A stretch of DNA of 64,000 nt from contig OY762721.1 in the NCBI GenBank assembly GCA_963666345.1, forward strand, positions 3,520,001-3,584,000, written 5' to 3'. This DNA is from Desulfatiglandales bacterium (GTDB lineage: Bacteria > Desulfobacterota > DSM-4660 > Desulfatiglandales > Desulfatiglandaceae). This document shows positions 11,495 through 63,687 of the stretch, in pieces. A model generated the notes under the pieces. That model made no database searches. It was given only the letters and a program-made list of their open reading frames with translations, and was not told the origin of the DNA. Each line of letters begins with the position of its first letter. Positions within the stretch are counted from its first letter, which is position 1. The position numbers were made by a program, and so were the translations under genes.

Positions 11495-13639
11495 TCAGAG
11501 GTTACCGTACGCATCCACTATGGACGCAAGAAACCTGTTCTCCTGTTTTGACAGGTCGGGATCAAGCGCCAGGATCTCCCGGGCCTCGCTTTTTGCCGCC
11601 TCAAGGAGTACGTGTTCCCTGAGCATCTCCGAGAAATCAAGTTCTCCGGCCCCCGCCTGCCTTGTGCCCATGAACTGCCCCTGCCCCCTTGCCTCAAGAT
11701 CCTTTGAGGCTATCTCAAAGCCGTCGTTGCTTGCCACAATCACCTTGAGCCGGGCAAGCGCCTCCTCAGAAACCCTGTCCGATCCGATAAGAAGACATAC
11801 CCCCTGTCGCGAGCCGCGTCCCACCCTGCCTCTCAGCTGATGAAGCTGGGCAAGCCCGAACCGCTCCGGGTGCTCCACCACCAGCAGTGTGGCATTCGGG
11901 GCATGAACCCCCACCTCCACCACGGTGGTTCCTACCAGAAGATCGAGCTCCGCCTTTCTGAACGCCTCCATGATCCGGTCTTTTTCCCGGCCCGGGATCC
12001 TGCCGTGGATCAGCTCCACCCTGAAGCGGGCTGAAAAAAGCCTTTTCAGGCTCTCATACATCTCAGTTGCGTTTTTGAGATCCTCTTCCTCACTTTCCTC
12101 GATCACGGGGCATACCACAAGGACCTGCTCGTTTTTCTCCATCCTGTCTCTTACCGTGTTAAAGATCTTTCTTTTTTTACCCTCATCGACAAGATGTGTG
12201 ATAACAGTCCTTCTGCCTTCAGGCATCTGTCTTATTGTGGTGATGTCCAGGTCCCCGTATATGGTCATGGCAAGGGTGCGGGGGATAGGGGTGGCGGTCA
12301 TTACAAGGAGATGCGGGTTATGCCCCTTTTTGTTCAGAAGATTTCTCTGCCTTACCCCGAAGCGGTGCTGCTCGTCTATTATGACAAGGCCGAGCCTTGA
12401 AAAGGTGACCGCCTCCTGAATGAGGGCCTGGGTGCCGATCACCAGGTTGTAGGACCCCTTTTCAATGTCCCGGTAAAGCTCAAGCCGGCTCTTTTTGTCA
12501 AGTGCGCCTGTAAGGAGCACCGGCCTGAATCCCAGTTTGGGGGAAAGCTCCGAAAAATAGGCGAAGTGCTGTCCTGCCAGGACCTGCGTGGGTGACATAA
12601 GGGCTGTCTGAAGCCCGTTTTTTGCGGCAGCGCACGCGGCCGCAGCCGCCACAACGGTCTTTCCGCAGCCCACATCCCCCTGAAGGAGCCTGCTCATGGG
12701 CGAGCCGTTTTGAAGGTCATCCATGATCTCCCTGATCGCATTTACCTGGTCCCGGGTGAATTTGAAAGGAAACGCCTTTTGAAATTCCTTCAGCAGGTCT
12801 TCGGGTATCAAAAGGGTTATGCCCTTTTTCGCCCTGCGCCTTTTTGCCATGGCGCATATCCTCAGCATGACCCCCAGGAACCTTCCGAATACGATCCTTT
12901 TGTGATAGGGGGTATCTTCGCTGATGAGCCTCTCATACGGGATGTCATCCGGCGGAAAGTGGAGTTTTTCAAGTGTTTCAAGAAACCCGGGAAGGTTGTG
13001 TCTTTCAAGGATATCCGCGGGGATCGGATCTCTTACCGCCCCCTTGAAACGATTAAGCGCCTCCCGCACGACCGAGCGCACGACATGGGCGGATATTCCT
13101 TCGATTGCCGGGTAGACCGGATAATAACCGAGAAGGGAGCCGTCATCCTGCTGCTCCTTGATATCTGAGATGTCGGGATGGGCCATCTGCCGCCTTTTAC
13201 CTGTGATCCTTACCGTGCCGTACGCCCTTATCTCAAGACCCTGCTCCGCGTAGGCGGAAAGGTGGGATTTTCTGTAGTTAAACCAGATAAGCTCGATCCT
13301 TCCGGTATCATCCTCTATGATAATCTTGAAAAGCCCCTTACCTCTCCTGAGCGGTCTTTCCTCCCTTGAGTAGACCACTTTTCCCTTGACCAGTGCCTTT
13401 TGGGTATCAGAGGTGTCTTCCATGGGGGTGATACGGCTCCTGTCTTCATATCTTGAAGGCAGGAACTCAAGGAGATCCCCTATGGAGCTTATCCCGCGCC
13501 TGTAAAAGGCCGACTCCCTTGTAGGGCCTATGCCTTTGAGGGTGTTGAGCGGTCTTGAAAGATCAGGCATATCCGGAAAGCTTACGGTGCTGTTCATGGT
13601 TTTTACTCGACTTGAAAATTTTTCCTTTGAATCCCGCAT
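11495..13639 (-). CDS. recG: ATP-dependent DNA helicase RecG
   Basis: Wedge domain, RLLQGDVGCGKT, DEQHRFG, MTATPIPRTL, QLHQLRGRVGRG. Confidence 0.97.
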   Translation of the reverse strand: MRDSKEKFSSRVKTMNSTVSFPDMPDLSRPLNTLKGIGPTRESAFYRRGISSIGDLLEFLPSRYEDRSRITPMEDTSDTQKALVKGKVVYSREERPLRRGKGLFKIIIEDDTGRIELIWFNYRKSHLSAYAEQGLEIRAYGTVRITGKRRQMAHPDISDIKEQQDDGSLLGYYPVYPAIEGISAHVVRSVVREALNRFKGAVRDPIPADILERHNLPGFLETLEKLHFPPDDIPYERLISEDTPYHKRIVFGRFLGVMLRICAMAKRRRAKKGITLLIPEDLLKEFQKAFPFKFTRDQVNAIREIMDDLQNGSPMSRLLQGDVGCGKTVVAAAAACAAAKNGLQTALMSPTQVLAGQHFAYFSELSPKLGFRPVLLTGALDKKSRLELYRDIEKGSYNLVIGTQALIQEAVTFSRLGLVIIDEQHRFGVRQRNLLNKKGHNPHLLVMTATPIPRTLAMTIYGDLDITTIRQMPEGRRTVITHLVDEGKKRKIFNTVRDRMEKNEQVLVVCPVIEESEEEDLKNATEMYESLKRLFSARFRVELIHGRIPGREKDRIMEAFRKAELDLLVGTTVVEVGVHAPNATLLVVEHPERFGLAQLHQLRGRVGRGSRQGVCLLIGSDRVSEEALARLKVIVASNDGFEIASKDLEARGQGQFMGTRQAGAGELDFSEMLREHVLLEAAKSEAREILALDPDLSKQENRFLASIVDAYGNL

Positions 13640-39379: not shown

Positions 39380-39456
<77 letters not shown>

Positions 39457-39560: not shown

Positions 39561-40868
39561 TTAATCTTGGCCCTCTGAAAGAGCCTTATTAAATGCATGA
39601 CCGTGGTTATTTTGGCTATTAGATCCGTTGTACTTGGCATAGACCTTGATAATCATTTCAGTGTTTCGATGTCCCATGACATCTGCTAGCCACAATGGAT
39701 CTTCCCCTTGACTTAAACACAAAGTTGCAAAACTATGTCTTGTCTGTCTCATTTCCCTAGGTTTGATCCCAGCTTTTTCCAAGGCCGGCTTCCAGACCCG
39801 TTCCCGAAGATTGTTGCTATCAATCCGTTTCCCGGTAGTGGCGCAGAAAAAGTATTCGCCTTTGAATTTACTGTATATCTTATGCTGTTCGTCAATTGCC
39901 TGACGCATTACAGGGATCATTTTAATAGTTCGCCTGCTACGGCGATTTTTTGTCCTTCCTTCTACCTTTTGCCCATTCTCATCAAGGGTCATTGCGCTTT
40001 TTATCCGGAAAGAATTTTCTGACCAGTTAATGTCTTCAGGCTTGAGAGCGATCTGTTCTCCCTGCCTTACTCCGGTAGAAAAGGCAAATTTAAAAAAAGG
40101 TCTCCAGTGGGAAGGACAGCTAGAAATTATTTTTCGTTGCTCTTCAATTGAGAAGGGGAATATCTTTTCACTAGGATCGTCCTCCTCCAGACTTTTAAAT
40201 TTGTCGAATGGATTGTAGTTATCTCCCCATCCATACTTAATAGATGCACTGTTGCAAACAGACCTCAGAGGTATGAAGATTTTATTGATGGTGGCATTTG
40301 CGATTTCCTTTTTGCGGAGACACAGTTTGCGCACCCAGACGATAAATTCATCAAAAAGGACAGGATTGAGTTCCGCAAAGGTCATATCACCGAAGAAAGG
40401 TTTGAGGTAAAGATCGATATGACTCTTATATCCTAGAAGTGTCCTTCCTGTAACCTTGCCGGAACCTTTTCGCAATCCATACCATATATCAAAATAGTCT
40501 TTTAAAAATACCTCCTCTGGACACTTCTTGTCTCCCGATAGAGCCCTTTCCTTCTCGGTAAAATAATTTGCCTTTTTGCTATGATGGAAGACATCAGCAA
40601 ACCTAAAGGTACCTGAGTCGATTTCCACAGTGATTTTATCGAGCTGACTCCTGACAACCCTGGCATTTTTAGCATTCCAGGGAAGGCCTGCTGGTTCTCG
40701 AACCCTTTCTCCCAAATAGATAAAATCTACATAGACCTTATTGTTGACTTTTCTCACAGAGCCTTGCTTATTTTGATTCAGGCCTGATTTCCTGCCAGGT
40801 CTTTCTGGTTTAAGGGTTTTAGGTAAGGATAAAATTTCTTTTGCCTGTGTATCCTTATTATTTTGCAT
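39561..40868 (-). CDS. Tyrosine recombinase/integrase with Arm DNA-binding (DUF3596-like) domain
   Basis: TGVRQGE, K, QTRHSFAT, MGH, catalytic VY; N-terminal YVDFIYLGERVRE. Confidence 0.93.
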   Translation of the reverse strand: MQNNKDTQAKEILSLPKTLKPERPGRKSGLNQNKQGSVRKVNNKVYVDFIYLGERVREPAGLPWNAKNARVVRSQLDKITVEIDSGTFRFADVFHHSKKANYFTEKERALSGDKKCPEEVFLKDYFDIWYGLRKGSGKVTGRTLLGYKSHIDLYLKPFFGDMTFAELNPVLFDEFIVWVRKLCLRKKEIANATINKIFIPLRSVCNSASIKYGWGDNYNPFDKFKSLEEDDPSEKIFPFSIEEQRKIISSCPSHWRPFFKFAFSTGVRQGEQIALKPEDINWSENSFRIKSAMTLDENGQKVEGRTKNRRSRRTIKMIPVMRQAIDEQHKIYSKFKGEYFFCATTGKRIDSNNLRERVWKPALEKAGIKPREMRQTRHSFATLCLSQGEDPLWLADVMGHRNTEMIIKVYAKYNGSNSQNNHGHAFNKALSEGQD

Positions 40869-41206: not shown

Positions 41207-41309
41207 TGTCAATAGGCGTTGAAAATTGACCCATCATCGGCGTCCAAAATTGACCCACCCCTGAGAAAAAAATATGGTTAAATAGTTGAGTAGTTGATCC
41301 CTTCTTTAT

Positions 41310-42041
41310 CTATGAAGCTGCGTGTTTCATTCTCCAGCTTTCGTTACCTGTTTCTATAATTTCACAATGATGAGTCAACCGATCAAGCATGGCCGTAGTC
41401 ATTTTTTTATCTCCAAAGACTTGGGGCCATTCACCGAAGGTCAAGTTGGTGGTGATTACTATGGATGTCTGTTCGTAGAGTTTTGATATAAGATGAAAGA
41501 GCAGTTGACTGCCGTTTTTGGAAAAAGGCAGATAACCCAGTTCATCGAGGACCACAAGATCAAATCGAAGTAGTCTTGCTGTGATTTTGCCGGCCAATCC
41601 AATCATTTTCTCCTGCTCAAGCTCATTTGCCAGATCCACCAGGTTATAAAACTTGCACTTCCTGCCATTCCTTATGGCCTGGGCCGCTATAGTTATGGCT
41701 AAATGGGTTTTGCCCGTACCGGTGCCACCTACAAAAATCAGGTTGATATGTTCGGCTATAAAATCACCCTGATAAATAGACCTAATCTGGGCTTCATCAA
41801 CACAGGCCCCGTTAAAATCAAAGCCATCGATATCTTTAAGGACAGGAAACCTGGCCTGTCCCATACGATATCGGATACTCCTTATATATCTTTCGGCAGC
41901 TTCAGCCTTGAGCAGTTCCAGGATTACCTTTTCAGGCGTTGAATGGCTCTTGCGTCCATTGGAGACAACTTCATCATAAATGGACTGCATACCCCGCAAC
42001 TTTAGTTTTTCCATCTGGTCCATGATATCATTGCGCAGCAT
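41310..42041 (-). CDS. istB: IS21 helper ATPase
   Basis: [30 protein letters not shown]. Confidence 0.96.
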
Positions 42042-43545
42042 GGTATCCCTCCCTTACCAAACGTTCATAGCGGCGGCAGTCTGCTATGGGCTCTTGCTTG
42101 AGAATCAGATGGGAGGGGATACCCAAATCAGGCGTGCAATCCTGATCCTGATCCCTGTTTAAAAGATTGAGAACCACCTCTTTACTTACGGCCCTTATCT
42201 TTAGGGCCTCCTTACAGGCTTTACTTACAGCCTCAAGTCCGTAGAAAGGAACAGCATTTAGAATGGCCACAAACTGACGGTCCCAGTCGGAAAAACGGTT
42301 TTGAAGCCCATTTAGGACGCCTTCGACAGGATCGGGAAGTTGCCAGTCTTTAAAGGGGGCTCCATTACGGAGAGCCCCGGGCTTACGTTCAAGGACCGGG
42401 ACATAATGCCAGGGATTAAAAATAGTCTTGTTCTTTCCAAAATGCCTATCATGCTCTCCTACGATACAACCGTTATTTACTATCACTATCCGATCGGCAT
42501 ATACTCTCATATAGACCGCTTTACCCACCTGGCTGCAATTAACGCTGTATCGGTTCCGGTCATAGGTTACAAGTGAGCTGGGGGTAACCCTGGCTGGACG
42601 TTGTGCATATCCATCAAAGAGAGGTGGTAGATTTATCAGATAGGGTCTCTCTTCACTGTAGACCTGCCAAACCGTCTTATCAGATATTGTTGGATGCTTA
42701 CGGGTCTTTGCCCAGGTGATGCATTGTTCTCTAAGCAGCTCGTTTAGGTGTGTGAAATCCCTGGCCTTGATTCGGGGAGTGAAAAATCTCCTTCTGACCA
42801 CACCTACCTGGTTTTCCACCTGACCCTTTTCCCAACCTGCAGCAGGGGTGCAGCTTACCGGTTCAAATAAATAATGGGAACACAGTTGGCTGAAGCGGCT
42901 GTTGAACTGTCTTTCCCTTCCTCCCAGGATCTTGTTAACCACTGTTTTGAGATTGTCATAGATGCCTTTACGGCAAACTCCCCCAAAAAACTCAAAGGCC
43001 CTGATATGGGCATCAAACACCATCTCCTGGGTTTCTCTGGGGTAGGCAATACAAAGGAAGTAGCGGCTGTGACATAACCTTATATGTGCAACCTTTGCCT
43101 TTACTCTGCTTCCGTCCAGATCTACCCACTCATGACTCCAGTCAAACTGAAAGGCTTCTGCAGGATCAAATACCAAAGGTATAAATACCTCCTTTGGCAA
43201 GCTCCTTTGATCCTGGCGCCATCTTTGAACATATCTCCGTACGCTGTCATAGCCACCTTCGTAGCCGTTGAGTTGCAGCTCTTCAAAAAGTATCTGGGCT
43301 GTCCTGCGCAGTTTTTTGGGCAGTTTCTCGTCTTCTTCCAGAAAGCCTTTCAGCATGTCTATAAACGGCCCCAGCTTGGGTCTTGGCTGGTTGCTTCGTT
43401 CGTACTGAAAAGATGTTTCTCCGCTCCTTATCGCCTTTTTTACTGTATTTTTGCTAAGGCGCAGATCCTTCGCTGTCTGACGTATGGATTTGCCATCTCT
43501 GAGAACAGCTAATCGTATCTTACGGATTGTTTCCACTGTGAGCAT
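42028..43545 (-). CDS. istA: IS21 transposase
   Basis: N-terminal HTH, QFDW, YDN, EKGQVE. Confidence 0.96.
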
Positions 43546-43659
43546 CCCTTTCCGCCTCCTTCTACCATAGTCACAGCAGAATAGAAGGCTTTCAGGGGTG
43601 GGTCAATTTTGGACGCCGATTCGCCCTATAGGTGGGTCATTTTTGCATGCCGATTCACA

Positions 43660-45020
43660 CCCCAGGAACGGGAAAGACATCCTTTGCTGAGGGTCTGGCA
43701 AAAGAATTGAAAATACCAGCATATACCATCACAAAAGATGCTGACAACAAGACTAAGCGTGCGAGACTTGCAATTATGGCCTGCTTAAACATTACAAACA
43801 GTGGAGATGGGTCCCTGGTAGTCGTAGATGAGGCTGACAACCTCCTTAACACAAGGTTCTCATGGTTTTCAAGGGGTGAGACTCAAGATAAGGGCTGGCT
43901 AAATAAACTGATGGAAGAGCCAGGGGTAAGGATGATCTGGATAACCAATGAGATAGATGACATTGCCCCATCGGTTTTAAGGAGATTTTCCTATAGCCTA
44001 CACTTTAAACCCTTTAACAAGCGTCAGAGAGTGCTTCTATGGGAGAACATCTTAAGATATAACAGGGTCAAGAGGTTTTTCACCAGTGATGAGGTAAATA
44101 GCCTTGCCGTCAGGTATAGGGTAAATGCCGGGGTCATAGATCTAGCGGTCAAGAAGGCTAAAGAGACGGGTATTACATCAAAGCCTGATTATCAAAATGC
44201 CTTAAGACTTGCCTTGGATGCCTACCTGGCTTTGGAAAATGGCGGGGAGAAGGAAATAGACAGGGAAAGAATCGAGAAAAACTACTCCTTGGAAGGTCTT
44301 AATATAAGGGGTGATCTTAAAGGAGCCTTAGGTCAGCTGGAAGCCTTTGATCAGTTTTTAAGGAAGGCTGATGATGACAGGGTATTAACCATTAATCTCT
44401 TGCTTTATGGACCACCTGGTACTGGAAAGAGCGAGTTTGCCAGATACCTTGGAAGGCACCTTGATAGGGAAATTATTGTCAAACGGATAAGTGACCTACA
44501 GAGCAAATGGGTAGGTGATTCAGAGAAGAATATCAGGGATGCCTTTTATGAAGCAGAAAGAGAAGAGGCAATCCTTATCATGGATGAGGCAGATAGCTTG
44601 GTTTTTAGCAGGGATTATGCCCTTCACTCATGGGAGATATCATTTACCAATGAATTTTTGGCCAGGTTGGAAAGGTTCAAAGGGATTCTTATTTGCACTA
44701 CCAATAGGCTGAAAGACCTTGATCAGGCGAGTATCAGGCGGTTTCAGCATAAGCTTGGGTTTGATTATCTGGATGCTGAAGGTAATCTGATTTTCTATCA
44801 AAAGCTTTTAGAAGGGCTGGTTGATGAACCATTGGATGATGAGAATATCGCTAAGCTAAAAGATATCCGTAACCTTGCTCCAGGAGATTTTAAGACGGTA
44901 AGGGATAGGTTTATCTTTATTTCCGATGATGGCCTGAACCATCAGACCCTTGTTGAGGCTTTAAGAAATGAGTCTGAAATCAAGAAGGTCTTCCTTAAAA
45001 CCGGCTCGATTGGCTTTTAA
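43660..45020 (+). pseudogene. Tandem AAA+ ATPase, N-terminus truncated by IS21 at the first Walker A
   Basis: PGTGKT/VVDEAD/LRRF and GPPGTGKS/IMDEAD/IRRF; ends in SIGF; ORF start lies inside the IS. Confidence 0.85.
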
Positions 45021-53611: not shown

Positions 53612-54217
53612 ATGTTCAACTATAAGAATCTTATGAATAAATTTGATCCACCTATTTGGATTGGAAACCAATATGAAAATGGGGGAATTTTTGAAAAGCG
53701 CATCATTATAATTGGTGAATCAACATATTGGTCAGGTCAACAACCGAATATTTCAATGGCTACTGATCATTTCGCTGATAAGCCACACTCAGATAAATAC
53801 AGGACGAAATTAGTCAGAATGTTTTTAAATAAAGATAATGAAACGAGAGAGGAAATTGCTGAATTTTGGCATTCAGTATCTTTTTTCAATTATTTTAAAA
53901 CTGTTTTAAGCGGTCCTTATAGATCACCTACTCAAGAAATGTTGAAGCAGCATCAGCCGCTACCTGATATTCTAGATGCTCTTAAACCAAATTTGATTTT
54001 AATAGTAATGCTCCGAATGTGGGATTATTTTGTCTCTAACCCGCCCTGTAAAATAAAAATGGGTCCAATAATAAAAGGAGCAAGGCGTAGTCAAACTTAT
54101 CATTTTGAAAGTAAAAGTGGACTCCATTCAGCATTGGGGTATGCTGTGAAGCATCCAACTTATGCTAGCTGGTCTTTAGAGCATGTCTACACTAAGGAAG
54201 CAATAAAACTTGCGTGA
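53612..54217 (+). CDS. Hypothetical protein, possible uracil-DNA-glycosylase-like fold
   Basis: IIIIGESTY, SFFNY, LKPNLIL and KHPT occur in UDG-like order; AAGGAG RBS. Confidence 0.6.
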   Translation: MFNYKNLMNKFDPPIWIGNQYENGGIFEKRIIIIGESTYWSGQQPNISMATDHFADKPHSDKYRTKLVRMFLNKDNETREEIAEFWHSVSFFNYFKTVLSGPYRSPTQEMLKQHQPLPDILDALKPNLILIVMLRMWDYFVSNPPCKIKMGPIIKGARRSQTYHFESKSGLHSALGYAVKHPTYASWSLEHVYTKEAIKLA

Positions 54218-54259: not shown

Positions 54260-54706
54260 CTATAGTTTTATTTTGTTAGTGAAATTGAATGCAGCTTGTA
54301 TATCCTGTAATTTCTTATCCCTGATCTTTTGATCCCATATTTCAAACTTTTTAAGCGCACCCATAAGTATAACCTTGTCTTTGTTAATCCCAGTAATCTT
54401 CCTGATTTGATCTGAAATAAATATTTCCCCTGCATCCGAAATGGATTTTTTATCCAAACAAAAGAAAGGCCTTTCGCCAGGAGATAAAGAAACCTTTTGT
54501 GAGAATAATTCTTCGGTTAATTCCCAAAAATAATCTTCAGGCAAAATTGTTAGTGAACCTTTTTCTCCATTCCATAATATACGCACCCCTTCATTTTTTA
54601 ATAAACCGATCCATATATCAGGGAGTAAAATTCTCGAATTCTCTATACTTCTATGGTATAACCCTCTAAAGAAGAGACCGTCTTTATATTTCTTTGAGGT
54701 GGCCAT
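54260..54706 (-). CDS. MraZ-like protein (divergent)
   Basis: FRGLYHRSI..RILLP, second repeat D.GEIFI....R...GI, VILMG...KFEIWD. Confidence 0.7.
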   Translation of the reverse strand: MATSKKYKDGLFFRGLYHRSIENSRILLPDIWIGLLKNEGVRILWNGEKGSLTILPEDYFWELTEELFSQKVSLSPGERPFFCLDKKSISDAGEIFISDQIRKITGINKDKVILMGALKKFEIWDQKIRDKKLQDIQAAFNFTNKIKL

Positions 54707-54743
54707 ACCGCCTTCCTTTCTATTTCCCTCAGTCTTTAAGCTA

Positions 54744-55388
54744 TTAATCAAATTTGGGTTTACTGTCTATGGAATGCTTCTCAGATTCAAAAACTACCAG
54801 CTCTTTTTCTGAGGTGATTATAAGGGTAAAGCCATGAGGGCTTTTATAGAACCAAGCCCAGCTATCCCAATCCCAATCAAGCGTTGGAATTTTATAAGCA
54901 TCTATAAAGGCTTCAGCAAAATCTTTAGGGGTTAGCTCATATACGTTAAACATCTTATCCACGCACATACTGCTAAACTGGAATTTATAGACCTTGCCGC
55001 TTTCTCTGTGAGCATATATCCCGAATGCGTCCCTATATTCCTCTGGCCTGAAACAATAATGCTGGCCAGTAGGAAGCTGCATCAACTCCCAATGGTATCC
55101 TGTGATTCTTTTAATTGTAGCCTTGGCGTCATTTATCGGCATCCCAAGGTAAAGACCTTTGAATTTGAGCGTTCGGGATTCAGTTTTTAGATTTTCAAAG
55201 GATTCCTTTTCAATTCCTACTATGTATCGAAACTGATCTGAGCCTTCGACAATATACGATCCGATTTTTCGCTGTTCATTTTCCGCACTGACAAAACCCG
55301 GGAGACAGGCGGTGAGCCCGAATATTGATGATATACCGAGGAATTGACGGCGTGTTATATTTAATTTTTTTGGCATTTTCAGTTTCAA
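54744..55388 (-). CDS. Hypothetical Tat-signal protein
   Basis: TRRQFL twin-arginine motif, hydrophobic h-region, VSA cleavage site; probable start ATG 55376. Confidence 0.65.
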   Translation of the reverse strand: MKLKMPKKLNITRRQFLGISSIFGLTACLPGFVSAENEQRKIGSYIVEGSDQFRYIVGIEKESFENLKTESRTLKFKGLYLGMPINDAKATIKRITGYHWELMQLPTGQHYCFRPEEYRDAFGIYAHRESGKVYKFQFSSMCVDKMFNVYELTPKDFAEAFIDAYKIPTLDWDWDSWAWFYKSPHGFTLIITSEKELVVFESEKHSIDSKPKFD

Positions 55389-55445
55389 GATTGTGAGAAG
55401 GGATATTATCCTTCAGATTATGATAAGCTGTTAACCTCTGACGGA

Positions 55446-57731
55446 TTATCTATAAGAGTTTCCATTTGCTCCAAACAATACAGGGATATGTTTTTTGTTT
55501 TTATATCTTCCTATAACTTTAAATAAATGATCATTGATAATGGACTTCCCATCACCGTTCAAAGAGGACTCTCTTTTGAACTGATTTGCTATAAGATCTA
55601 TTTCATTTAGATGCAGTGGATGATGCTCCACAACCTGAATAAATTTATCTTCAATATCTTTTCGGGCGTTAAAGTGTTTTGCCCATTGTCTTATTTGAAA
55701 TTCTTCGGGAGGGAGATGAATATTTAGAAAATAGTTGAACTCAATGGGTATTTCTTCCTCTCTGACAGGATTTGTAATTAAAAAAAGGATACCTTTAAAC
55801 CTCTCTAAATAATTATAAAAATCAAAAGATTCTTTTTCCTTATCATTATCTTCTTTATACTTGAGGTATCGTTCAAAAATTGACTTATCATCTACAAGGA
55901 GGGTCACTGAGCTGTGACCTATAAAGGTCCTGAATATGTATTCCAATGGATCAATCTCATCCTGTGTTAAGTTATCTTTTACTATCCTCGAAGAGCTTTT
56001 ACCAATAAGCATATCGGGCAGGTTGAACATTCTTACCTTTAAATTACATTCTTTAGCTACTGCCGCGGCACAATCAGTTCCTGTCTGAATATCGGAACAA
56101 CCCATTATGAGTTTTATATCCGTGTTGTTACTAGAATCTTTCATTATAGCTTTTATCAAATTGCTTATAACTTCTTTATCTCTGTGCCTTAAAAAGAGAT
56201 CTTTCATATTAATCTGAGGCGTGAAAATTTTCTCCGATAAATTGAACTCAAGCATCCTGCACGTTTGATGTTCTGCGGCTCTTTCGAGTTCTTCAGACGT
56301 CAATATCAGATTTGAATTTTTGTTTTTTACCAGCGTATTAGTTGTTGCCATGAAAAGAGTATTTTTGATCAGACCTCCTGTGAAAACATAATTTCTTGCA
56401 AATTTGCTAAGGTCTACATCTTTGCCAAATAAAGCATTGGGAGGAAGCAATGCTTCCCATATTTTCAGCCTTTCACGTTCGTCCGGCAGTTGGAAAGGGA
56501 TTTTTAAATTTATACGCCGGTCAAGAGCAGGATCAAGTTTAATAACTTTATTGGTTGCAAATATGGTAATGCACCCTGCCTTCTCAATTTCGATAAGCAG
56601 GTTTCGACTCTCTTCTGTGTTTTTACTGAAAACATCATCGCACTCATCAAAAAAGACAATTCCATTACATAACTTTGCCTCTTTGAAAATAGTATTTATC
56701 AACTCATTATTTGAAATTCTGAATTGAAAATCCTTGGAAAAATTTACAGATAGGAGCTCCATGTCCAGCTCGTTTGATAAGGCGTGTGCCAGCATGGTTT
56801 TACCCGTACCTGATGGACCATAAAACAATAATGTCAATCCAGTACCATATCCGTAGAATTTTTCGACAATAGTTCTTTCCTCTATTACCTGACTATGTAG
56901 ATAGTTCCTGGTCAGTTCTACAATTTCTCTTTTTACTCCCCCGGAAATAATTACCTGATCCAGTCCGATGCTTCCCTTTTTCCTGGAAATACATTGAAGG
57001 TCTGTATCATAAATATTGTTATCCTCAAGAATGAACCTGATAGCGCGCTCATGTAAATGAACCGGCATATCTAGAATATTTGTTGTATTAACGTAAAAAG
57101 AACCGGGAATAACAATCTCGTTTTTTATCAGAGGAGCTTTAATGTTAAAATATTTTCTGCTGGATATTTGATCCCGATATTCTGAATGAACAATTGATAA
57201 GATTGATCCAATAGTCATAGCGCTATCGGTTCGATCTTCAGGATCAAGTTCACAGCACCTGAAAAGGTTACGAAAGCTCTTTGATGTCTCATATGAAATC
57301 AATAGTATTAAAATAATACGTTCCGTATCATCAAGCTCATTAAGCTTACAGAAATGTTCAAAATTAAGATGTATTCCTGCCTCAAGAGAATTCCGTACCC
57401 GTTGATTTATATCCATCTCAATTTTTCTGAGCAACATCTCCAACTTTTCAGGAGTTATCTCATCAGGCGACAAACCTGAAGAATTAAAATTCAATTCCTG
57501 AGTAAAACCGCTAATTTTTTTATGTTTAAGAATTAATACGTCGTTATTTTCCTGATTGGAGGAAGCATCACGAAGGAATGCTTTAACAACTCTAACCCTT
57601 GCGGAATACTCCAGCGCTTCAAGGTGTTCAATACTATCTTTAAAGATACTTTCCTTCTTGGGATTATTGATTGCCATATAAACTGAGAAATCATTTCCTG
57701 ATAATGTCCTTTCAATTGTATTAAGGCCCAT
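55446..57731 (-). CDS. Large AAA+ ATPase (helical N-domain, active AAA, degenerate second AAA)
   Basis: GPSGTGKT, VFFDECD, ATN, DPALDRR, FTGGLIKN; the second module lacks the Walker A lysine. Confidence 0.9.
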   Translation of the reverse strand: MGLNTIERTLSGNDFSVYMAINNPKKESIFKDSIEHLEALEYSARVRVVKAFLRDASSNQENNDVLILKHKKISGFTQELNFNSSGLSPDEITPEKLEMLLRKIEMDINQRVRNSLEAGIHLNFEHFCKLNELDDTERIILILLISYETSKSFRNLFRCCELDPEDRTDSAMTIGSILSIVHSEYRDQISSRKYFNIKAPLIKNEIVIPGSFYVNTTNILDMPVHLHERAIRFILEDNNIYDTDLQCISRKKGSIGLDQVIISGGVKREIVELTRNYLHSQVIEERTIVEKFYGYGTGLTLLFYGPSGTGKTMLAHALSNELDMELLSVNFSKDFQFRISNNELINTIFKEAKLCNGIVFFDECDDVFSKNTEESRNLLIEIEKAGCITIFATNKVIKLDPALDRRINLKIPFQLPDERERLKIWEALLPPNALFGKDVDLSKFARNYVFTGGLIKNTLFMATTNTLVKNKNSNLILTSEELERAAEHQTCRMLEFNLSEKIFTPQINMKDLFLRHRDKEVISNLIKAIMKDSSNNTDIKLIMGCSDIQTGTDCAAAVAKECNLKVRMFNLPDMLIGKSSSRIVKDNLTQDEIDPLEYIFRTFIGHSSVTLLVDDKSIFERYLKYKEDNDKEKESFDFYNYLERFKGILFLITNPVREEEIPIEFNYFLNIHLPPEEFQIRQWAKHFNARKDIEDKFIQVVEHHPLHLNEIDLIANQFKRESSLNGDGKSIINDHLFKVIGRYKNKKHIPVLFGANGNSYR

Positions 57732-57743
57732 TTTATTAACTCC

Positions 57744-58313
57744 TTATTTTTTCAAATCAGGTTTTAAGGGTTCAACGATATCAACAATACCAAATTCTAA
57801 CGCTTCTTCCGGAGTAAGCCATGTGTCAACATCCCGCAGAAGATACTGCTCAAGCTTCTCCTGGGACTCTAGATTGCTGTACTTCAAGTAATGGCTAACA
57901 ATTCTTGAATGCTCGAGATCCTGTTCTTTGCGTTCAGCAATTAATTGACTGTGATTTCCCCAGGTGATTGCTGAATATCTGTGTGAAAGCATAGAAGTCC
58001 TGGGAGTAATTACCCTTCGACCCTTTGCTCCTGTCATAAATATAAGGAGGCTCATCGACGCTATCAGTCCAACTCCGGTTGTGTAGATTGGCAGGCGTGA
58101 CCACTCCATTATGTCTATTATCGCAAAGCCATCAGGGCACAAGCCCCCGGGTGAGTTGATAATCATCTGTATGTGATCAGTGCTGCCAGATAGATTATAT
58201 TCGATTATGTCTTTACACACATTTTCCGAAACCCCATTACTGATAGTGCCGGATAAAAAAATAATTCCGTATTCTTTTAAACCCTTGCCTTCAGGTTGGC
58301 CATTTTTATCCAT
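57744..58313 (-). CDS. ClpP-like (S14) serine protease
   Basis: INSPGG, IASMS (Ser), MLSH (His), DTWLTPEEALEFGIVD (Asp). Confidence 0.92.
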   Translation of the reverse strand: MDKNGQPEGKGLKEYGIIFLSGTISNGVSENVCKDIIEYNLSGSTDHIQMIINSPGGLCPDGFAIIDIMEWSRLPIYTTGVGLIASMSLLIFMTGAKGRRVITPRTSMLSHRYSAITWGNHSQLIAERKEQDLEHSRIVSHYLKYSNLESQEKLEQYLLRDVDTWLTPEEALEFGIVDIVEPLKPDLKK

Positions 58314-58387
58314 ATCTTTTTCTCCTTAAGTTCCTTTAATTGTAACTAGCTATAATTATTTGACCCTTTTTTTTATTATTGTTAACA

Positions 58388-58424
58388 TCACATTACTCCA
58401 CGAATGTGACATTTTTGGCCATAT
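58388..58424. promoter_or_regulatory. Candidate WYL-regulator operator(s) in the divergent intergenic region
   Basis: TCACATT-N8-AATGTGA inverted repeat (58388-58409) overlapping an imperfect TGTGACA-N5-GGCCATA. Confidence 0.45.
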
Positions 58425-58448
58425 GAACTAAAAATTTTCTGGAAAAAA

Positions 58449-59447
58449 ATGAGAGGGAAAAATTTAATAAAACTCCTGAGGGCTCTCGAGCTTTTTTCAA
58501 AACCTGAGGGAACTACTATTGAAGAGATATCCGAGCACCTAGGAATAGATCGGAGGTCTGTCTACAGGGTGATAAATTTGGTTGAGGAGCTCGGATTCCC
58601 TATATATGACGAGGAAATACCATTAGAGAAGAGTAAAAGATGGAAGCTTGAGGAAAGCTATCTAAAAAAATTGCCCAATATGAAACTTCCGGATGTCAAA
58701 CTATCGATATCCGAGATAATGTCGCTATATTTATTGAAGAGTGAATCCGTTCTTTATAAAGGTACTGAAATATATAAACATATCAACTCAGCCTTTGAGA
58801 AAATCAGTCTTTTTGCCCCCAAGGACCTGTTTACACAACTAAAAAAAATCAGCGCCTTATTTGTCCCGTCATCAAAGTTTAGAAAAGACTATGCAGGAAA
58901 AGAAAAAATCATAGAGCAGCTTATGGACGCGATGCTCCAGAAAAAGACCTGCTATGTGAAATACCATTCCTTTTATGAGGACAGGATAAAGAATTTTAAA
59001 ATTGATCCATTGCATTTCTTCGAGAATGACGGTGGATTATATATTTTTGTTAATGCTACAAGTTTTGGCGATATTCTCACGCTCGCTGTTGAGAGGATCC
59101 AAGAGATAAGGGACGCTGGATCATGCTTTGAATACCCTAAAAACTTTAATCCGGAAGAGTTGCTGGAATCTGCCTTTGATTTAGTTTACGGAGATCCGGT
59201 CGAGGTCAAAATCTGGTTCTCCGCCCACCAGGCACGTTATATAAAAGAACGTATGTGGTCAAAGACCCAACAAATAGAAAACCAGGAAGACGGTTCAATT
59301 ATCTTATCGATGAAAACTTCAGGTCAATGGGATATTATCAGGTGGGTCCTTTCCTATGGTAGTGATGCTAAAGTGATGGAGCCTGAAGGGTTGAAAAAAA
59401 AGATTATGGTGGAATTAACAGCAGTTGTTAATAAGTATAATGAATAA
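58449..59447 (+). CDS. wHTH-WYL-WCX transcriptional regulator
   Basis: HTH (LGIDRRSVYR), WYL-like core IDPLHF..GGLYI..LAVERI, WCX IRWVLSYGSDAKVMEP. Confidence 0.93.
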   Translation: MRGKNLIKLLRALELFSKPEGTTIEEISEHLGIDRRSVYRVINLVEELGFPIYDEEIPLEKSKRWKLEESYLKKLPNMKLPDVKLSISEIMSLYLLKSESVLYKGTEIYKHINSAFEKISLFAPKDLFTQLKKISALFVPSSKFRKDYAGKEKIIEQLMDAMLQKKTCYVKYHSFYEDRIKNFKIDPLHFFENDGGLYIFVNATSFGDILTLAVERIQEIRDAGSCFEYPKNFNPEELLESAFDLVYGDPVEVKIWFSAHQARYIKERMWSKTQQIENQEDGSIILSMKTSGQWDIIRWVLSYGSDAKVMEPEGLKKKIMVELTAVVNKYNE

Positions 59448-59663
59448 AAGAATTAAAGTTGTGATATGATCAGAATATCTGTGATCTTTGATGATGAAAA
59501 TATTCTGGTGTTTTTTGGTGAGATCACAGCAATTGCGATCCGTGTGATATGAAAGTGGTATCTTTCCTAGCTGGAGATTGAACCAAAACAAATAAATACA
59601 GTCCTTGCCTAAACCGCCTACCATTTTATATCATCCCTAGAAACAAAGCATGACAGGAGTCTT

Positions 59664-59954
59664 ATGCCAATGAGTCTAACCAAAGCTCAAATCGTTGAAG
59701 GGATACACCAAGGGACGGGTTTAACAAGAAAACAAGCGGGTGATGCCTTAGAAGACATCCTTGATATCATTAAGAACAGGCTTGAAACCGGGGAAAGTGT
59801 CTTGATTTCAGGTTTTGGTAGGTTTGCAGTCAAGGAAAAGCGCCCTAGGCGAGGTAGAAACCCTGCCACAGGCAAGTCCATAATGCTTGATGGTAGAAAA
59901 GTCGTCAGTTTTAAGTGCTCTGGTGTCCTAAAAGACAGGCTAAATAAGTCATAA
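59664..59954 (+). CDS. ihfA: Integration host factor alpha-like protein
   Basis: LTKA.IV, ISGFG.F.V..K..R.GRNPATG, VVSFK.S. Confidence 0.88.
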   Translation: MPMSLTKAQIVEGIHQGTGLTRKQAGDALEDILDIIKNRLETGESVLISGFGRFAVKEKRPRRGRNPATGKSIMLDGRKVVSFKCSGVLKDRLNKS

Positions 59955-60561
59955 GTCACTCAATTACGAGGTATTGGACTTCTATACCGTATAAATCACT
60001 CGATTTTCACTTCCCTCAAGTCCTTTAAACATAGTTGTAAGATCAAAAATATGCGATTGAGGTCTTAAAATACCAGTTTGCGTTTAAAATATTGATGTTT
60101 CACGCTCCTTTTTAACCGTTTCTCACTCAAAACCACCTTTTTCAACAACAAAACACCCTTCTGTAAGAAAACTTCAAACCATTAACATAAGAGGCCTGGA
60201 CCTGCTTCATAAATTACTGTTTTTTGTACTTGATAAGTCATCTTGTAATGTCAACTGATCAATTTTTGCCAACAACTCATGGATAAACCGATTGAAGCAG
60301 GTAGTTCAAGAAATATCAATACAGTTTATTATTGATTATGTCAGTTTAAATTGTTTTATTTTGAAGTGATCAATGGATGATTTGAGGGCATGAACCTGGC
60401 TTCTCAATGCTTTTAATTAAGTCAGATAAATATCATCAAAGACTGCAGGAAACTCTCAGAGAGGATAATATCGTAGAGCCAACAGTCATCAAATATCAAA
60501 GCTTATGGAATTCGGAAAAACCGCTCCCTCAAAACCAAATTAAAAAAAGAAAAAAACTTGA

Positions 60562-60661
60562 GTGACAGTATGACAGCAAATTTCAAACATTATTTTTTAT
60601 AGTTAATATAATTACTTAATTAAATTAACAAATATAAAAATTTTTACCGTCATACCGTCAC
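60562..60661. repeat. Inverted repeat pair around an AT-rich core (ori-like)
   Basis: GTGACAGTATGACAGCAA versus reverse complement GTGACGGTATGACGGTAA, about 62 bp AT-rich spacer. Confidence 0.6.
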
Positions 60662-60881
60662 AAGAAATTAGTCTGAAACAACCTTACTTTTGAGTTTTAT
60701 CAGACGCTTTTTTGAAGTCCTGTTATAGACTACTTCTACACTGTTTTTTTCTAAGACATGGACTGCTTGTGAATCGGCATGCAAAAATGACCCACCTATA
60801 GGGCGAATCGGCGTCCAAAATTGACCCACCCCTGAAAGCCTTCTATTCTGCTGTGACTATGGTAGAAGGAGGCGGAAAGGG

Positions 60882-62399
60882 ATGCTCACAGTGGAAACAA
60901 TCCGTAAGATACGATTAGCTGTTCTCAGAGATGGCAAATCCATACGTCAGACAGCGAAGGATCTGCGCCTTAGCAAAAATACAGTAAAAAAGGCGATAAG
61001 GAGCGGAGAAACATCTTTTCAGTACGAACGAAGCAACCAGCCAAGACCCAAGCTGGGGCCGTTTATAGACATGCTGAAAGGCTTTCTGGAAGAAGACGAG
61101 AAACTGCCCAAAAAACTGCGCAGGACAGCCCAGATACTTTTTGAAGAGCTGCAACTCAACGGCTACGAAGGTGGCTATGACAGCGTACGGAGATATGTTC
61201 AAAGATGGCGCCAGGATCAAAGGAGCTTGCCAAAGGAGGTATTTATACCTTTGGTATTTGATCCTGCAGAAGCCTTTCAGTTTGACTGGAGTCATGAGTG
61301 GGTAGATCTGGACGGAAGCAGAGTAAAGGCAAAGGTTGCACATATAAGGTTATGTCACAGCCGCTACTTCCTTTGTATTGCCTACCCCAGAGAAACCCAG
61401 GAGATGGTGTTTGATGCCCATATCAGGGCCTTTGAGTTTTTTGGGGGAGTTTGCCGTAAAGGCATCTATGACAATCTCAAAACAGTGGTTAACAAGATCC
61501 TGGGAGGAAGGGAAAGACAGTTCAACAGCCGCTTCAGCCAACTGTGTTCCCATTATTTATTTGAACCGGTAAGCTGCACCCCTGCTGCAGGTTGGGAAAA
61601 GGGTCAGGTGGAAAACCAGGTAGGTGTGGTCAGAAGGAGATTTTTCACTCCCCGAATCAAGGCCAGGGATTTCACACACCTAAACGAGCTGCTTAGAGAA
61701 CAATGCATCACCTGGGCAAAGACCCGTAAGCATCCAACAATATCTGATAAGACGGTTTGGCAGGTCTACAGTGAAGAGAGACCCTATCTGATAAATCTAC
61801 CACCTCTCTTTGATGGATATGCACAACGTCCAGCCAGGGTTACCCCCAGCTCACTTGTAACCTATGACCGGAACCGATACAGCGTTAATTGCAGCCAGGT
61901 GGGTAAAGCGGTCTATATGAGAGTATATGCCGATCGGATAGTGATAGTAAATAACGGTTGTATCGTAGGAGAGCATGATAGGCATTTTGGAAAGAACAAG
62001 ACTATTTTTAATCCCTGGCATTATGTCCCGGTCCTTGAACGTAAGCCCGGGGCTCTCCGTAATGGAGCCCCCTTTAAAGACTGGCAACTTCCCGATCCTG
62101 TCGAAGGCGTCCTAAATGGGCTTCAAAACCGTTTTTCCGACTGGGACCGTCAGTTTGTGGCCATTCTAAATGCTGTTCCTTTCTACGGACTTGAGGCTGT
62201 AAGTAAAGCCTGTAAGGAGGCCCTAAAGATAAGGGCCGTAAGTAAAGAGGTGGTTCTCAATCTTTTAAACAGGGATCAGGATCAGGATTGCACGCCTGAT
62301 TTGGGTATCCCCTCCCATCTGATTCTCAAGCAAGAGCCCATAGCAGACTGCCGCCGCTATGAACGTTTGGTAAGGGAGGGATACCATGCTGCGCAATGA
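60882..62399 (+). CDS. istA: IS21 transposase
   Basis: Protein identical to 42028-43545. Confidence 0.96.
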
Positions 62400-63117
62400 T
62401 ATCATGGACCAGATGGAAAAACTAAAGTTGCGGGGTATGCAGTCCATTTATGATGAAGTTGTCTCCAATGGACGCAAGAGCCATTCAACGCCTGAAAAGG
62501 TAATCCTGGAACTGCTCAAGGCTGAAGCTGCCGAAAGATATATAAGGAGTATCCGATATCGTATGGGACAGGCCAGGTTTCCTGTCCTTAAAGATATCGA
62601 TGGCTTTGATTTTAACGGGGCCTGTGTTGATGAAGCCCAGATTAGGTCTATTTATCAGGGTGATTTTATAGCCGAACATATCAACCTGATTTTTGTAGGT
62701 GGCACCGGTACGGGCAAAACCCATTTAGCCATAACTATAGCGGCCCAGGCCATAAGGAATGGCAGGAAGTGCAAGTTTTATAACCTGGTGGATCTGGCAA
62801 ATGAGCTTGAGCAGGAAAAAATGATTGGATTGGCCGGCAAAATCACAGCAAGACTACTTCGATTTGATCTTGTGGTCCTCGATGAACTGGGTTATCTGCC
62901 TTTTTCCAAAAACGGCAGTCAACTGCTCTTTCATCTTATATCAAAACTCTACGAACAGACATCCATAGTGATTACCACCAACTTGACCTTCGGTGAATGG
63001 CCCCAAGTCTTTGGAGATAAAAAGATGACTACGGCCATGCTTGATCGGTTGACTCATCATTGTGAAATTATAGAAACAGGTAACGAAAGCTGGAGAATGA
63101 AACACGCAGCTTCATAG
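62386..63117 (+). CDS. istB: IS21 helper ATPase
   Basis: Protein identical to 41310-42041. Confidence 0.96.
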
Positions 63118-63687
63118 ATAAAGAAGGGATCAACTACTCAACTATTTAACCATATTTTTTTCTCAGGGGTGGGTCAATTTTGGACGCCGATGATGGGTCA
63201 ATTTTCAACGCCTATTGACAATCCTATGGATGAAATAAAAGCAGCTGTATGAGCTTGTTTTCTAAAGAGATATAAGTAGCTGAAGATATTGGGATAAGAT
63301 TAGATATTGGCTTTGATGGTCTTTAGCTGGAGATGTTTGTAAAGGCTTACCTGGAAGACAGGGAGAAGGTAAAGCAGCTGCCCGGCATATAAGCCTATCT
63401 TATTAACCGGGCAAGCTGTAGCTACCCTTTATCTGGCTATGATAAAGCAACCGTCCAAGATTCTTGGTCTTTCCATCCACAAATCAAAAATATTCAGGAT
63501 TTCAACAAGCATATAACCTCTTCACATCTATACAAAAAGCAACTTTGCTACTTAATGTAATTAGGTATTTATTAGGTATATTACTGGTATATATTTATCA
63601 TGCTTTATATTGACTTTTACTTTATTTATATGCCAATAAATATTTGATTATCAATTTTATTAGTTTCTAGTATTTGGTTTTTTATCA

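Follow-up and report, generated by a model that had tools for sequence, protein, structure and literature searches.

A conserved, mobile module of a WYL regulator, a ClpP-like peptidase, and a p97-like AAA ATPase as a candidate inducible ATP-dependent protease

The known motors of bacterial chambered proteases form a small, well-mapped set, namely, ClpX, ClpA, ClpC, and ClpE, which work with ClpP; HslU, which works with HslV; Mpa, which works with the 20S particle; and the fused Lon and FtsH. Established docking elements are the IGF loops of ClpX, which engage ClpP, and the hydrophobic-Tyr-X (HbYX) tails of the proteasomal ATPases, which engage the 20S particle. Archaeal Cdc48/VAT or PAN and bacterial Mpa are classic-clade AAA rings (two rings in the case of Cdc48) that are docked by their tails on the seven-fold 20S peptidase ring, and in actinobacteria, the proteasome genes share a locus with pafBC, which encode WYL regulators. 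Other WYL regulators, BrxR and CapW, act as repressors. Here, we describe a locus from a Desulfatiglandales bacterium, located in a 64,000-nucleotide (nt) stretch of contig OY762721.1 that is referred to below as the window, in which a gene for a WYL regulator is divergent from the genes for a ClpP-like S14 serine peptidase (hereafter, ClpPl) and a large AAA ATPase. The interpretation that we favor, with a probability slightly above one-half (about 0.55), is that these genes compose a horizontally moving three-gene module, switched by the WYL protein through activation of the single-stranded DNA (ssDNA) type, in which ClpPl and the p97-like ATPase would function as one ATP-dependent protease.

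The initial annotation of the window placed five genes at this locus, and the list of six-frame open reading frames (ORFs) agrees. The regulator gene (332 amino acids, aa; positions 58449 to 59447, plus strand) lies head-to-head with the ClpPl gene (189 aa; 57744 to 58313, minus strand) across a gap of 135 bp (58314 to 58448), and the ATPase gene (761 aa; 55446 to 57731, minus strand) follows that of ClpPl after 12 bp. Related loci were collected by a pattern scan in which each species was represented by one genome and which returned 80 loci (numbered with the prefix L), and the proteins of the window were compared by tblastn. ClpPl is encoded directly upstream of the AAA gene in 28 public loci, often with a spacing of a few bases or with the two genes overlapping, and of the 24 loci with 0.7 kb or more of sequence upstream of ClpPl, 19 also carry an orthologous, divergent WYL gene (41 to 69% identity). 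The WYL-ClpP-AAA synteny, which the initial annotation had offered for checking, is therefore conserved, and it extends across phyla. Two loci begin inside the AAA gene, so that linkage to ClpPl is not judgeable there (L023 and L030), and one has only a AAA fragment, without ClpPl (L038); all eight distant tandem-AAA relatives (22 to 29% identity, with both AAA modules intact) are without ClpPl, and the other loci of the scan are generic archaeal AAA matches. The two remaining genes of the window, encoding a Tat-signal protein and a weakly MraZ-like protein, have no tblastn match in any other module locus. The conserved unit is three genes, encoding the WYL regulator, ClpPl, and an ATPase of about 750 aa with a winged-helix domain (WHD-AAA), rather than five.

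The identity matrices of the three genes correlate across 14 loci, with Mantel r values of 0.73 to 0.85 that none of 2,000 permutations reached. Across phyla, ClpPl is unusually conserved, at 53 to 75% identity versus 24 to 47% for the AAA protein. The hosts of the module are many unrelated anaerobes, mostly Thermodesulfobacteriota ("Deltaproteobacteria," Geobacteraceae, Desulfobacteraceae, and Syntrophales), and further hosts are found among Terriglobia, Synergistaceae, and Dependentiae, along with one Bacteroidia bin; two are isolates, Geomobilimonas luticola (JCM 17780, locus L010) and Geobacter sp. OR-1. The ATPase was detected at E ≤ 1e-30 in 1 of 40 related genomes, which indicates that the module is accessory. 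This sole orthologue (L091; G020:C2:86771-88978) has one in-frame TGA in its ATPase gene, which may denote a pseudogene or a sequencing error. Relatives of the ATPase with 740 to 780 aa are numerous, and 116 of the 120 best protein clusters carry PF22977 together with PF00004; names are nearly absent among these 120 clusters. The module is real, conserved, and mobile.

The regulator combines the Pfam domains HTH_11, WYL, and WCX in the winged helix-turn-helix (wHTH)-WYL-WCX order of the DriD/PafBC type. When a profile of 15 orthologues was compared with solved structures, it matched DriD (8tp8 and 9pfq) at an E value of 1e-13 and PafBC (6sj9 and 7p5x) at 1e-6 to 1e-5; BrxR and CapW were absent among its 18 PDB matches at E ≤ 1. 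In PADLOC 2.0.0, the regulator gave generic WYL matches. The intergenic regions of related loci share a pseudo-palindrome of 17 to 19 nt, GTGnCC-N5-TGnCAC, with the core GAC-N7-GTC, that is perfect in L008 (GTGAC-N7-GTCAC). Its counterpart between the WYL and ClpPl genes of the window is ATGGCCAAAAATGTCACAT (58404 to 58422, minus strand). A matrix trained on 12 of these sites was used to scan the module loci at a threshold of at least 15 bits, and 23 co-oriented boxes were recovered, 11 of them outside the training set; 3 more were recovered in the reverse orientation, and the one of the 23 that falls within an ATPase gene is probably a chance match. The dinucleotide TA is found at offset +10 past the proximal half-site in 15 of the 23 boxes, and TAnnnT is found there in 9, compared with 0 to 8 boxes having TA at any other examined offset (0 to 21). 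This spacing puts the half-site at approximately -28 to -23, ahead of a -10 hexamer and without a -35 element. In the window, the -10-like hexamer is TAATGT (58390 to 58395, minus strand), located 10 nt downstream of the operator half-site and likewise without a -35. A scan for consensus promoters, whose overall yield is no higher than chance, gives no sigma-70-type site for ClpPl in the intergenic region (minus strand); for the WYL gene, it yields a sigma-70-like candidate by consensus match, TTGACC-17-TAACAT (58360 to 58388, plus strand), with the operator just downstream.

Even with a leave-one-out matrix, the window box is the top match in the 4.16-Mb genome (23.5 bits), and a credible site in this genome is found at the module locus only. 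The second-best box (C1:3656346; 22.5 to 23.0 bits) lies in an ORF, is without TA at +10, and has no downstream ORF on its strand, and it was rejected as a chance match; matches of this strength are expected by chance once per 8.3 million positions. The true site is told by its position, not by its score. The terminal repeats of the IS21-family insertion sequences (ISs) in this genome also give a chance match to the matrix, at 16.4 bits.

This promoter layout is that of the DriD and PafBC regulons. In the available part of one study, the DriD site is given as ATACGAC(X)7GTCGTAT, overlapping the would-be -35 region at a constant distance from the -10, and the DriD-regulated promoters are described as having no recognizable -35 (PMC13004042). 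PafB, according to the accessible portion of another, touches a GTC triplet at -23 to -28, termed the "-26 element," in promoters that have a -10 and lack a -35 (PMC8635444). Enrichment of DriD after DNA damage is seen at recA, recJ, bapE, and dnaG as well as at its own promoter, as stated in the part of the report that is available (PMC9186387). Because the module promoters share this layout, the WYL protein is more likely an activator than a repressor, and by the same analogy, ssDNA is the inferred trigger of its activation. The comparison with BrxR and CapW drawn in the initial annotation was not borne out, given that the sequence, the operator core, and the promoter geometry resemble those of DriD/PafBC instead. 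Regulation of the module by the WYL protein is well supported up to the signal.

ClpPl matches Pfam CLP_protease (PF00574) at 107.4 bits against a cut-off of 20.2. The intact Ser-His-Asp triad noted in the initial annotation consists of S86, H111, and D161; it is invariant in 20 of 20 aligned sequences and aligns with the triad of the canonical ClpP of the same genome. That protein (C1:78767-79306) reaches 297 bits in Pfam, and the genome also holds a canonical tig-clpP-clpX locus, which makes ClpPl an extra, private copy. With a best score of 95 bits against thresholds of 228 to 361, ClpPl is below every NCBIfam ClpP cut-off. In its predicted structure (pLDDT confidence score, 72.5), the top Foldseek matches are all true ClpP chains, at a template modeling (TM) score of approximately 0.63; residues 1 to 10 have low confidence, and the handle region, which aligns without large gaps, was also modeled at low confidence.

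The ATPase comprises a helical region followed by a winged-helix N-domain (PF22977; residues 27 to 242, encoded at 57006 to 57653, minus strand), an active first AAA module, D1 (residues 290 to 495; 56247 to 56864, minus strand), and a degenerate second module, D2 (residues 500 to 750; 55482 to 56234, minus strand). The Walker A (GPSGTGKT) and Walker B (DECDD) motifs and the arginine fingers (R405 and R406) of D1 are invariant columns in an alignment of 28 sequences. D2 has GCSDIQTG in the place of Walker A, without the lysine, and the second AAA module is indeed degenerate, as the initial annotation had it. Pfam recognizes a single AAA domain (PF00004; residues 301 to 414), and the model (pLDDT, 78) shows the helical and winged-helix N-region (residues 33 to 250), a complete D1, and a D2 with the AAA fold (residues 500 to 750). 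By Foldseek, 550 to 600 columns align to p97, Cdc48, Rix7, and NVL, and the sequence profile ranks Cdc48/p97 first; with these as the best matches in both sequence and fold, the ATPase is not ClpX, ClpA, or ClpC, in agreement with the initial annotation. The N-domain is the PF22977 winged helix and not the double-psi barrel of the Cdc48 type.

A candidate peptidase-docking element was found at the C terminus of the ATPase. The motif LFG (L752, F753, and G754; 55470 to 55478, minus strand), located in a tail with pLDDT below 50, is invariant in the 28-sequence alignment. It occurs within the final 25 residues of all 21 readable ClpPl-linked ATPases (22 were taken from the loci, and in L017 this part is masked), and the most divergent of the linked ATPases (L031 and L033) have QLFG at the very end. 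Among seven unlinked relatives, none has LFG and four end in IGF, VGFF, or similar, that is, in (I/V)GF(F); a 5'-truncated tandem-AAA paralogue within the window likewise terminates in SIGF. The comparison was extended to 101 full-length family representatives obtained by exhaustive search from a superfamily of 4,343 representatives at E ≤ 1e-30. LFG was found in 33 of these tails, [ILVMA]GF within the last 10 residues in 42, an HbYX-like end in 8, and none of these in 18; the chance rates, estimated from internal windows of the same proteins, are 1.0% for LFG, 0.8% for xGF, and 0.5% for HbYX-like ends. This distribution suggests that the whole superfamily may dock peptidases by the tail, with LFG as the version matched to ClpPl. 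When two copies of ClpPl were modeled together with residues 500 to 761 of the ATPase, the predicted complex scored 0.43, and the control scored 0.35, a difference that weighs neither for nor against a complex. The use of an IGF loop by ClpX is named in the title of a structure of the ClpX-ClpP complex (PDB 6wr2).

A wider set of winged-helix/tandem-AAA relatives with 700 to 1,100 aa (P0164 to P0247, as well as L028, L035, L036, and L039) is without an adjacent ClpP-like gene. Their ends are mostly IGF-like, and some are HbYX-like. Such relatives could pair with the housekeeping ClpP, or with peptidases of the proteasome type, in partnerships that have not been described.

The mechanism that we propose for the module would proceed as follows. 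The WYL protein would be a sensor-activator of the DriD/PafBC type that binds a pseudo-palindromic box at the -35 position of a -10-only promoter. By analogy, ssDNA produced by DNA damage or infection would trigger it and turn on the divergent operon, and the WYL protein, which would also sit at the start of its own transcript, would probably damp its own promoter. ClpPl and the two-ring AAA protein, with its winged-helix N-domain, live D1, and ATPase-dead D2, would assemble into one ATP-dependent protease in which the ATPase ring docks the peptidase ring via flexible C-terminal LFG tails, in the way that HbYX serves the proteasome and IGF serves ClpP. Targets would be selected by the winged-helix N-domain. 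The variable downstream genes, mostly nucleases, would often be co-regulated with the core, and in the window, this cargo would consist of the Tat-signal, MraZ-like, and uracil-DNA-glycosylase (UDG)-like proteins. Defense or abortive infection and clearance after DNA damage both fit as the role of the module, with ssDNA arising in both, and the DNA damage role fits the regulator equally well as does defense or abortive stress.

Several observations weigh against this reading. On the side of the regulator, the match to DriD is mainly in the WYL-WCX half, TA at +10 is missing in 8 of the 23 boxes, and a box over the -35 region could equally serve a repressor. Three ClpPl-AAA loci are without a WYL gene (L025, L031, and L033), the WYL gene of L021 is distant and co-directional, and that of L006 is a fragment. 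On the side of the protease, pore loop 1 of D1 is variable and mostly non-aromatic (QFRI in the window, and NLGA, QLGS, and RTAA elsewhere), and D2 cannot bind ATP in the usual manner; such a pore loop speaks against a simple threading model, and together with the dead D2, it makes hand-over-hand threading no more than a possibility. The N terminus of ClpPl is hydrophilic, with a 6-residue deletion, and is without the hydrophobic axial-loop sequence that in canonical ClpP has a role in gating and in contact with the ATPase. A fusion of ClpPl with the AAA protein was not found, nor was any longer ClpPl-containing protein at E ≤ 1e-20, which is weak evidence. PADLOC 2.0.0 gave no match for ClpPl and a weak IetA match for the AAA protein, at 63 bits in the AAA core. 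Searches of IMG/VR and PLSDB returned AAA-core matches only, with no full-length relative of the ATPase, and a phage or plasmid origin is not supported in these databases. Finally, the cargo differs between loci, and the output of the module is therefore unreadable from its neighbors.

The neighboring genes were clustered as ORFs, and 89 of the encoded proteins were scanned with Pfam and 81 with PADLOC. The downstream part varies between loci and is rich in DNA-directed enzymes, including DUF2779 nucleases (L010, L013, L014, and L034, with the same cluster in L022), PDDEXK_4/PDC-S26 nucleases (L009, L016, and L018), REase-ARP (L021, L026, and L034), ERCC4 (L021), and HD proteins (L008, L026, and L034). 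Other cargo consists of DprA/ShosA-like and SSB proteins (L014), FtsA-like and SIR2 proteins (L016), a MkoA-like helicase with PDC-M57B (L041), GmrSD/HEC-05 (L034), ZacA/ZacB (L021), and PDC-S11 (L024). A DnaA-like ATPase gene is inserted between WYL and ClpPl in L016 and L018 and between ClpPl and the ATPase in L031. In the closest large locus (L024), a gene for a PIN-domain protein and a small gene upstream of it, together VapBC-like, lie on the opposite strand between WYL and ClpPl (L024:6373-7043), and the WYL box is located after this insert, directly ahead of ClpPl. No obvious nuclease is found beside the module in L011, L017, L019, or the window. Extra boxes, which indicate that part of the cargo is co-regulated, precede genes of 219/264 aa and 91 aa in L010/L014, the DnaA-like, FtsA-like, and SIR2 genes in L016, and, in one case, a small zinc-ribbon gene in L015. 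The L016 boxes at 11840 to 11858 and 13171 to 13189, ahead of the FtsA/actin-like and SIR2 genes of this Geobacteraceae metagenome-assembled genome, suggest that one regulator may drive several conflict-type genes. The neighborhood check proposed in the initial annotation thus came out with surroundings rich in nuclease and defense-candidate genes. No tail, sheath, tube, or baseplate families were named in the Pfam scan.

These surroundings lend themselves to an alternative in which the WYL protein is a repressor of the BrxR/CapW type and infection relieves its repression of an operon that serves, by itself, in anti-phage defense or abortive infection. The variable islands with defense candidates such as PDC-S26, ShosA-like DprA, ZacA/ZacB, PDC-S11, PDC-M57B with the MkoA-like helicase, and GmrSD/HEC-05, the sporadic presence in 1 of 40 related genomes, and the 65.6-kb tRNA island described below are all in its favor, and a palindrome that covers the -35 could stand in the way of RNA polymerase. 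Against these stand the profile, which finds DriD and PafBC and neither BrxR nor CapW, and the promoters, which have no -35 and a fixed distance from box to -10, as in the activator-dependent DriD/PafBC promoters; moreover, ClpPl is not in PADLOC. We consider this alternative unlikely, although it survives better than the others.

A second alternative accepts the gene linkage and dispenses with the complex. Here, the AAA protein, using its winged-helix N-domain, would act on proteins bound to DNA by remodeling or extracting them, and ClpPl would work on its own as a peptidase without a gate, clearing the released or unfolded material or processing a specific partner. The variable D1 pore loop, the dead D2, and the divergent N-terminal gating region of ClpPl are compatible with such a division of labor, as is the DNA-centered cargo (DUF2779, PDDEXK_4, REase-ARP, ERCC4, HD, DprA, SSB, and the DnaA-like ATPase). 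What makes it less probable still is the strict adjacency of the two genes in 28 loci, with gaps that are often a few bases or overlaps, and the perfect co-occurrence of the LFG tail with ClpPl, whereas the tails of relatives are IGF-like or HbYX-like.

That the core is constant, the cargo varies, and cargo genes carry the same box could also be explained if the substrate of the ClpPl-AAA pair were the WYL activator, or else a protein that inhibits the cargo nucleases, so that the pair would reset or license the response and would not itself be the effector. Proteolytic control of regulators is known beside defense operons, and shut-off of the PafBC response is aided by the Pup-proteasome system. 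Nevertheless, approximately 950 codons are large for a reset switch, and the pair is found without WYL (L025, L031, and L033) and without an obvious nuclease (L011, L017, and L019 as well as the window), so that this explanation appears improbable.

Finally, the possibility that ClpPl is a remnant of a prophage head-maturation protease or a spare housekeeping ClpP working with ClpX, for which its matches to phrog_94 in PHROG (91 bits) and to NF045542 (64.7 bits) and the location in an integrase island might be cited, is extremely improbable and was ruled out (the initial annotation had itself listed a head-maturation module as a refuting match), considering that the NF045542 score is under the cut-off of 120, that no capsid, portal, or terminase family was named among the neighboring proteins scanned (89 with Pfam and 81 with PADLOC), that the linked ATPase has no full-length relative in IMG/VR, that ClpPl is under all NCBIfam ClpP cut-offs, and that it always travels with its own ATPase.

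The setting of the module in the window is that of an integrated island. A tRNA-Arg(ACG) gene (39380 to 39456) is followed by a tyrosine-integrase-like ORF (39561 to 40868), and the 3' part of the tRNA gene, from approximately tRNA position 33, is present again, as a direct repeat 45 nt or more in length, about 65.5 kb downstream (near 104976, beyond the window). The repeat and the integrase delimit an island of approximately 65.6 kb with the module inside. The GC content is 0.34 to 0.38 across 53 to 59 kb versus 0.48 genome-wide, and the AT-rich tRNA/integrase island of the initial annotation is therefore evident here. An IHF/HU-family gene beside the WYL gene (59664 to 59954) was considered as a module member and ruled out. 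It sits in a 1.3-kb element (59460 to 60767) that has a 100% identical copy at C1:2982119-2983426 and an 87% copy near window coordinate 75366, and this repetition elsewhere confines the AT-rich cassette to approximately 53.25 to 59.46 kb. The element abuts one of two IS21-family copies with IstA and IstB ORFs (41207 to 43659 and 60768 to 63220), which are inverted to each other. A composite transposon formed by this pair was also considered, but the IS21-family element has 15 copies in the genome with identical ends, and the pair is no evidence for one. The other IS21-family copy truncates the 5' end of the tandem-AAA paralogue mentioned above (43632 to 45020, plus strand), which clusters with the module ATPase and gives a stronger match to the IetA model (109 bits).

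The two genes downstream of the ATPase are local cargo whose membership in the module is doubtful. The initial annotation was right about their presence; they are not matched in other loci, and the MraZ likeness is weak. The 214-aa protein (54744 to 55388, minus strand) has TRRQFLG by its N terminus, followed by a hydrophobic stretch, which we take to be a twin-arginine translocation (Tat) signal; it has no Pfam, PADLOC, or PHROG match, and none of its structural neighbors in the ESM Atlas is above 0.78. The 163-aa protein (54260 to 54751, minus strand) has no Pfam match and reaches 25 bits with TIGR00242 of NCBIfam, against a cut-off of 98. A promoter-like site, TTAACA-18-GATAAT (55405 to 55434, minus strand), was found by consensus match in the 57-bp gap between the ATPase and Tat-signal genes. 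The two genes are local additions that may be transcribed from a promoter of their own. Beyond them lies a gene for a 201-aa protein (53612 to 54217, plus strand) that is a recurrent neighbor of the module, with a homologue directly after the module ATPase in a Geobacteraceae locus (L015:5670-6371). This protein has no Pfam, PADLOC, or PHROG match, and its structural neighbors in the ESM Atlas are named UDG-like at a TM score of approximately 0.8, which provides a lead only.

Beyond the module itself, a broader and tentative possibility, which we regard as distinctly less likely than the WYL-switched protease, is that the superfamily represents unrecognized tail-docking unfoldases, with LFG tails directed to a dedicated, gate-less ClpP-like ring, IGF-like tails to housekeeping ClpP, and HbYX-like tails to proteasome-type peptidases. 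The LFG clade would then be a third kind of bacterial chambered ATP-dependent protease, switched by ssDNA in the DriD-like manner and acting on DNA-bound or invader proteins, and could be the bacterial counterpart of the p97-proteasome in chromatin and DNA damage clearance or an executioner of abortive infection. If a p97-like motor with a tail-docking motif does serve a ClpP-like chamber of its own, a new pairing would join the known ones, and the tail motifs would give a simple way of recognizing, from sequence, further peptidase partners among the thousands of uncharacterized AAA proteins. On the regulatory side, the module would extend the promoter logic of DriD/PafBC to Thermodesulfobacteriota, Acidobacteriota, and Synergistota and would tie ssDNA sensing to induced proteolysis. 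If it functions in phage defense, it would be a new defense family; if it functions in recovery from DNA damage, it would point to a step of clearance by proteolysis about which little is known in bacteria.

As the initial annotation had surmised, no named system corresponds to the module: PADLOC 2.0 is without a model for it, and no description of a WYL/ClpP-like/AAA module was found in the literature, most subscription journals being outside the search. Overall, the initial interpretation is partly supported, and the module is best placed by comparison with the systems that it resembles. BrxR and CapW, of BREX and CBASS, have the same wHTH-WYL-WCX order and a regulator gene beside an accessory island operon; they differ in being undetected by the regulator profile at E ≤ 1, and the module promoter layout is activator-like. 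IetAS (Gao_Iet) is also a pair of an ATPase and a protease in defense islands. However, IetA is a single-AAA protein of approximately 370 aa, its PADLOC match covers only residues 254 to 486 of the module ATPase, the protease IetS belongs to S8 and ClpPl to S14, and the WYL regulator and its box are part of the module.

Afp15 and Pvc15, ATPases of extracellular contractile injection systems, share the PF22977 N-domain and the tandem AAA organization with the module ATPase. This likeness, proposed in the initial annotation, holds at the level of Pfam, given that the plasmid-borne ATPase of Serratia entomophila in the Afp15 position, after the tape-measure gene, matches PF22977 at 72 bits; it did not extend to direct sequence comparison, in that tblastn with the N-domain alone against plasmids gave no match, and the relation is therefore at the profile level only. 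Pfam matches the second AAA module of Afp15 (491 to 615), compared with the first in the module ATPase, and Afp15 is without LFG and IGF tails; its gene belongs to a contractile-injection cluster, of which no sheath, tube, or baseplate family was named among the module neighbors scanned with Pfam. Pvc15, according to the accessible parts of two reports, loads proteins into the tube lumen (PMC11495950; bioRxiv 10.1101/2023.08.15.553202).

Compared with Cdc48, PAN, or Mpa on the 20S particle, the module peptidase is of the ClpP type and not an Ntn-hydrolase, the tail is LFG and not HbYX/GQYL, and D2 is dead. With ClpXP, ClpAP, and ClpCP, the module shares the S14 fold, the Ser-His-Asp triad, and a peptidase gene adjoining that of a AAA+ protein, and the arrangement proposed for it, a ring ATPase on a ring peptidase, is theirs. 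The module ATPase differs from their motors in its clade, which is the classic p97/Cdc48-like one, and in having a winged-helix N-domain and neither the ClpX zinc domain nor Clp-N; ClpX docks by an internal IGF loop, whereas the element proposed here is a C-terminal LFG tail. ClpPl differs from ClpP in its N-terminal loops and in scoring below the NCBIfam ClpP cut-offs.

DriD and PafBC, the best matches of the regulator profile among solved structures, have the domain order wHTH-WYL-WCX in common with the module regulator; the similarity in sequence is modest and greatest over the WYL-WCX half. The DriD box, as it is given in the available text (PMC13004042), and the module box share the core GAC-N7-GTC, and the promoter-proximal half-site of the module, at -28 to -23 before a -10 and without a -35, corresponds to the -26 element of PafBC described in the accessible text (PMC8635444). 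DriD also binds its own promoter and those of the nuclease genes bapE and recJ, and in the regulon as described in the available part of that report, the protease-ATPase core of the module is not seen (PMC9186387). The module regulon is local, with a credible site in the genome at its own locus only. As a kind, then, the proposed machine is a known one, a AAA+-driven chambered protease under a WYL regulator; what is apparently new is the pairing, in that a p97-like motor related to Afp15 and bearing an LFG tail is joined to an S14 peptidase behind a promoter of the DriD type.

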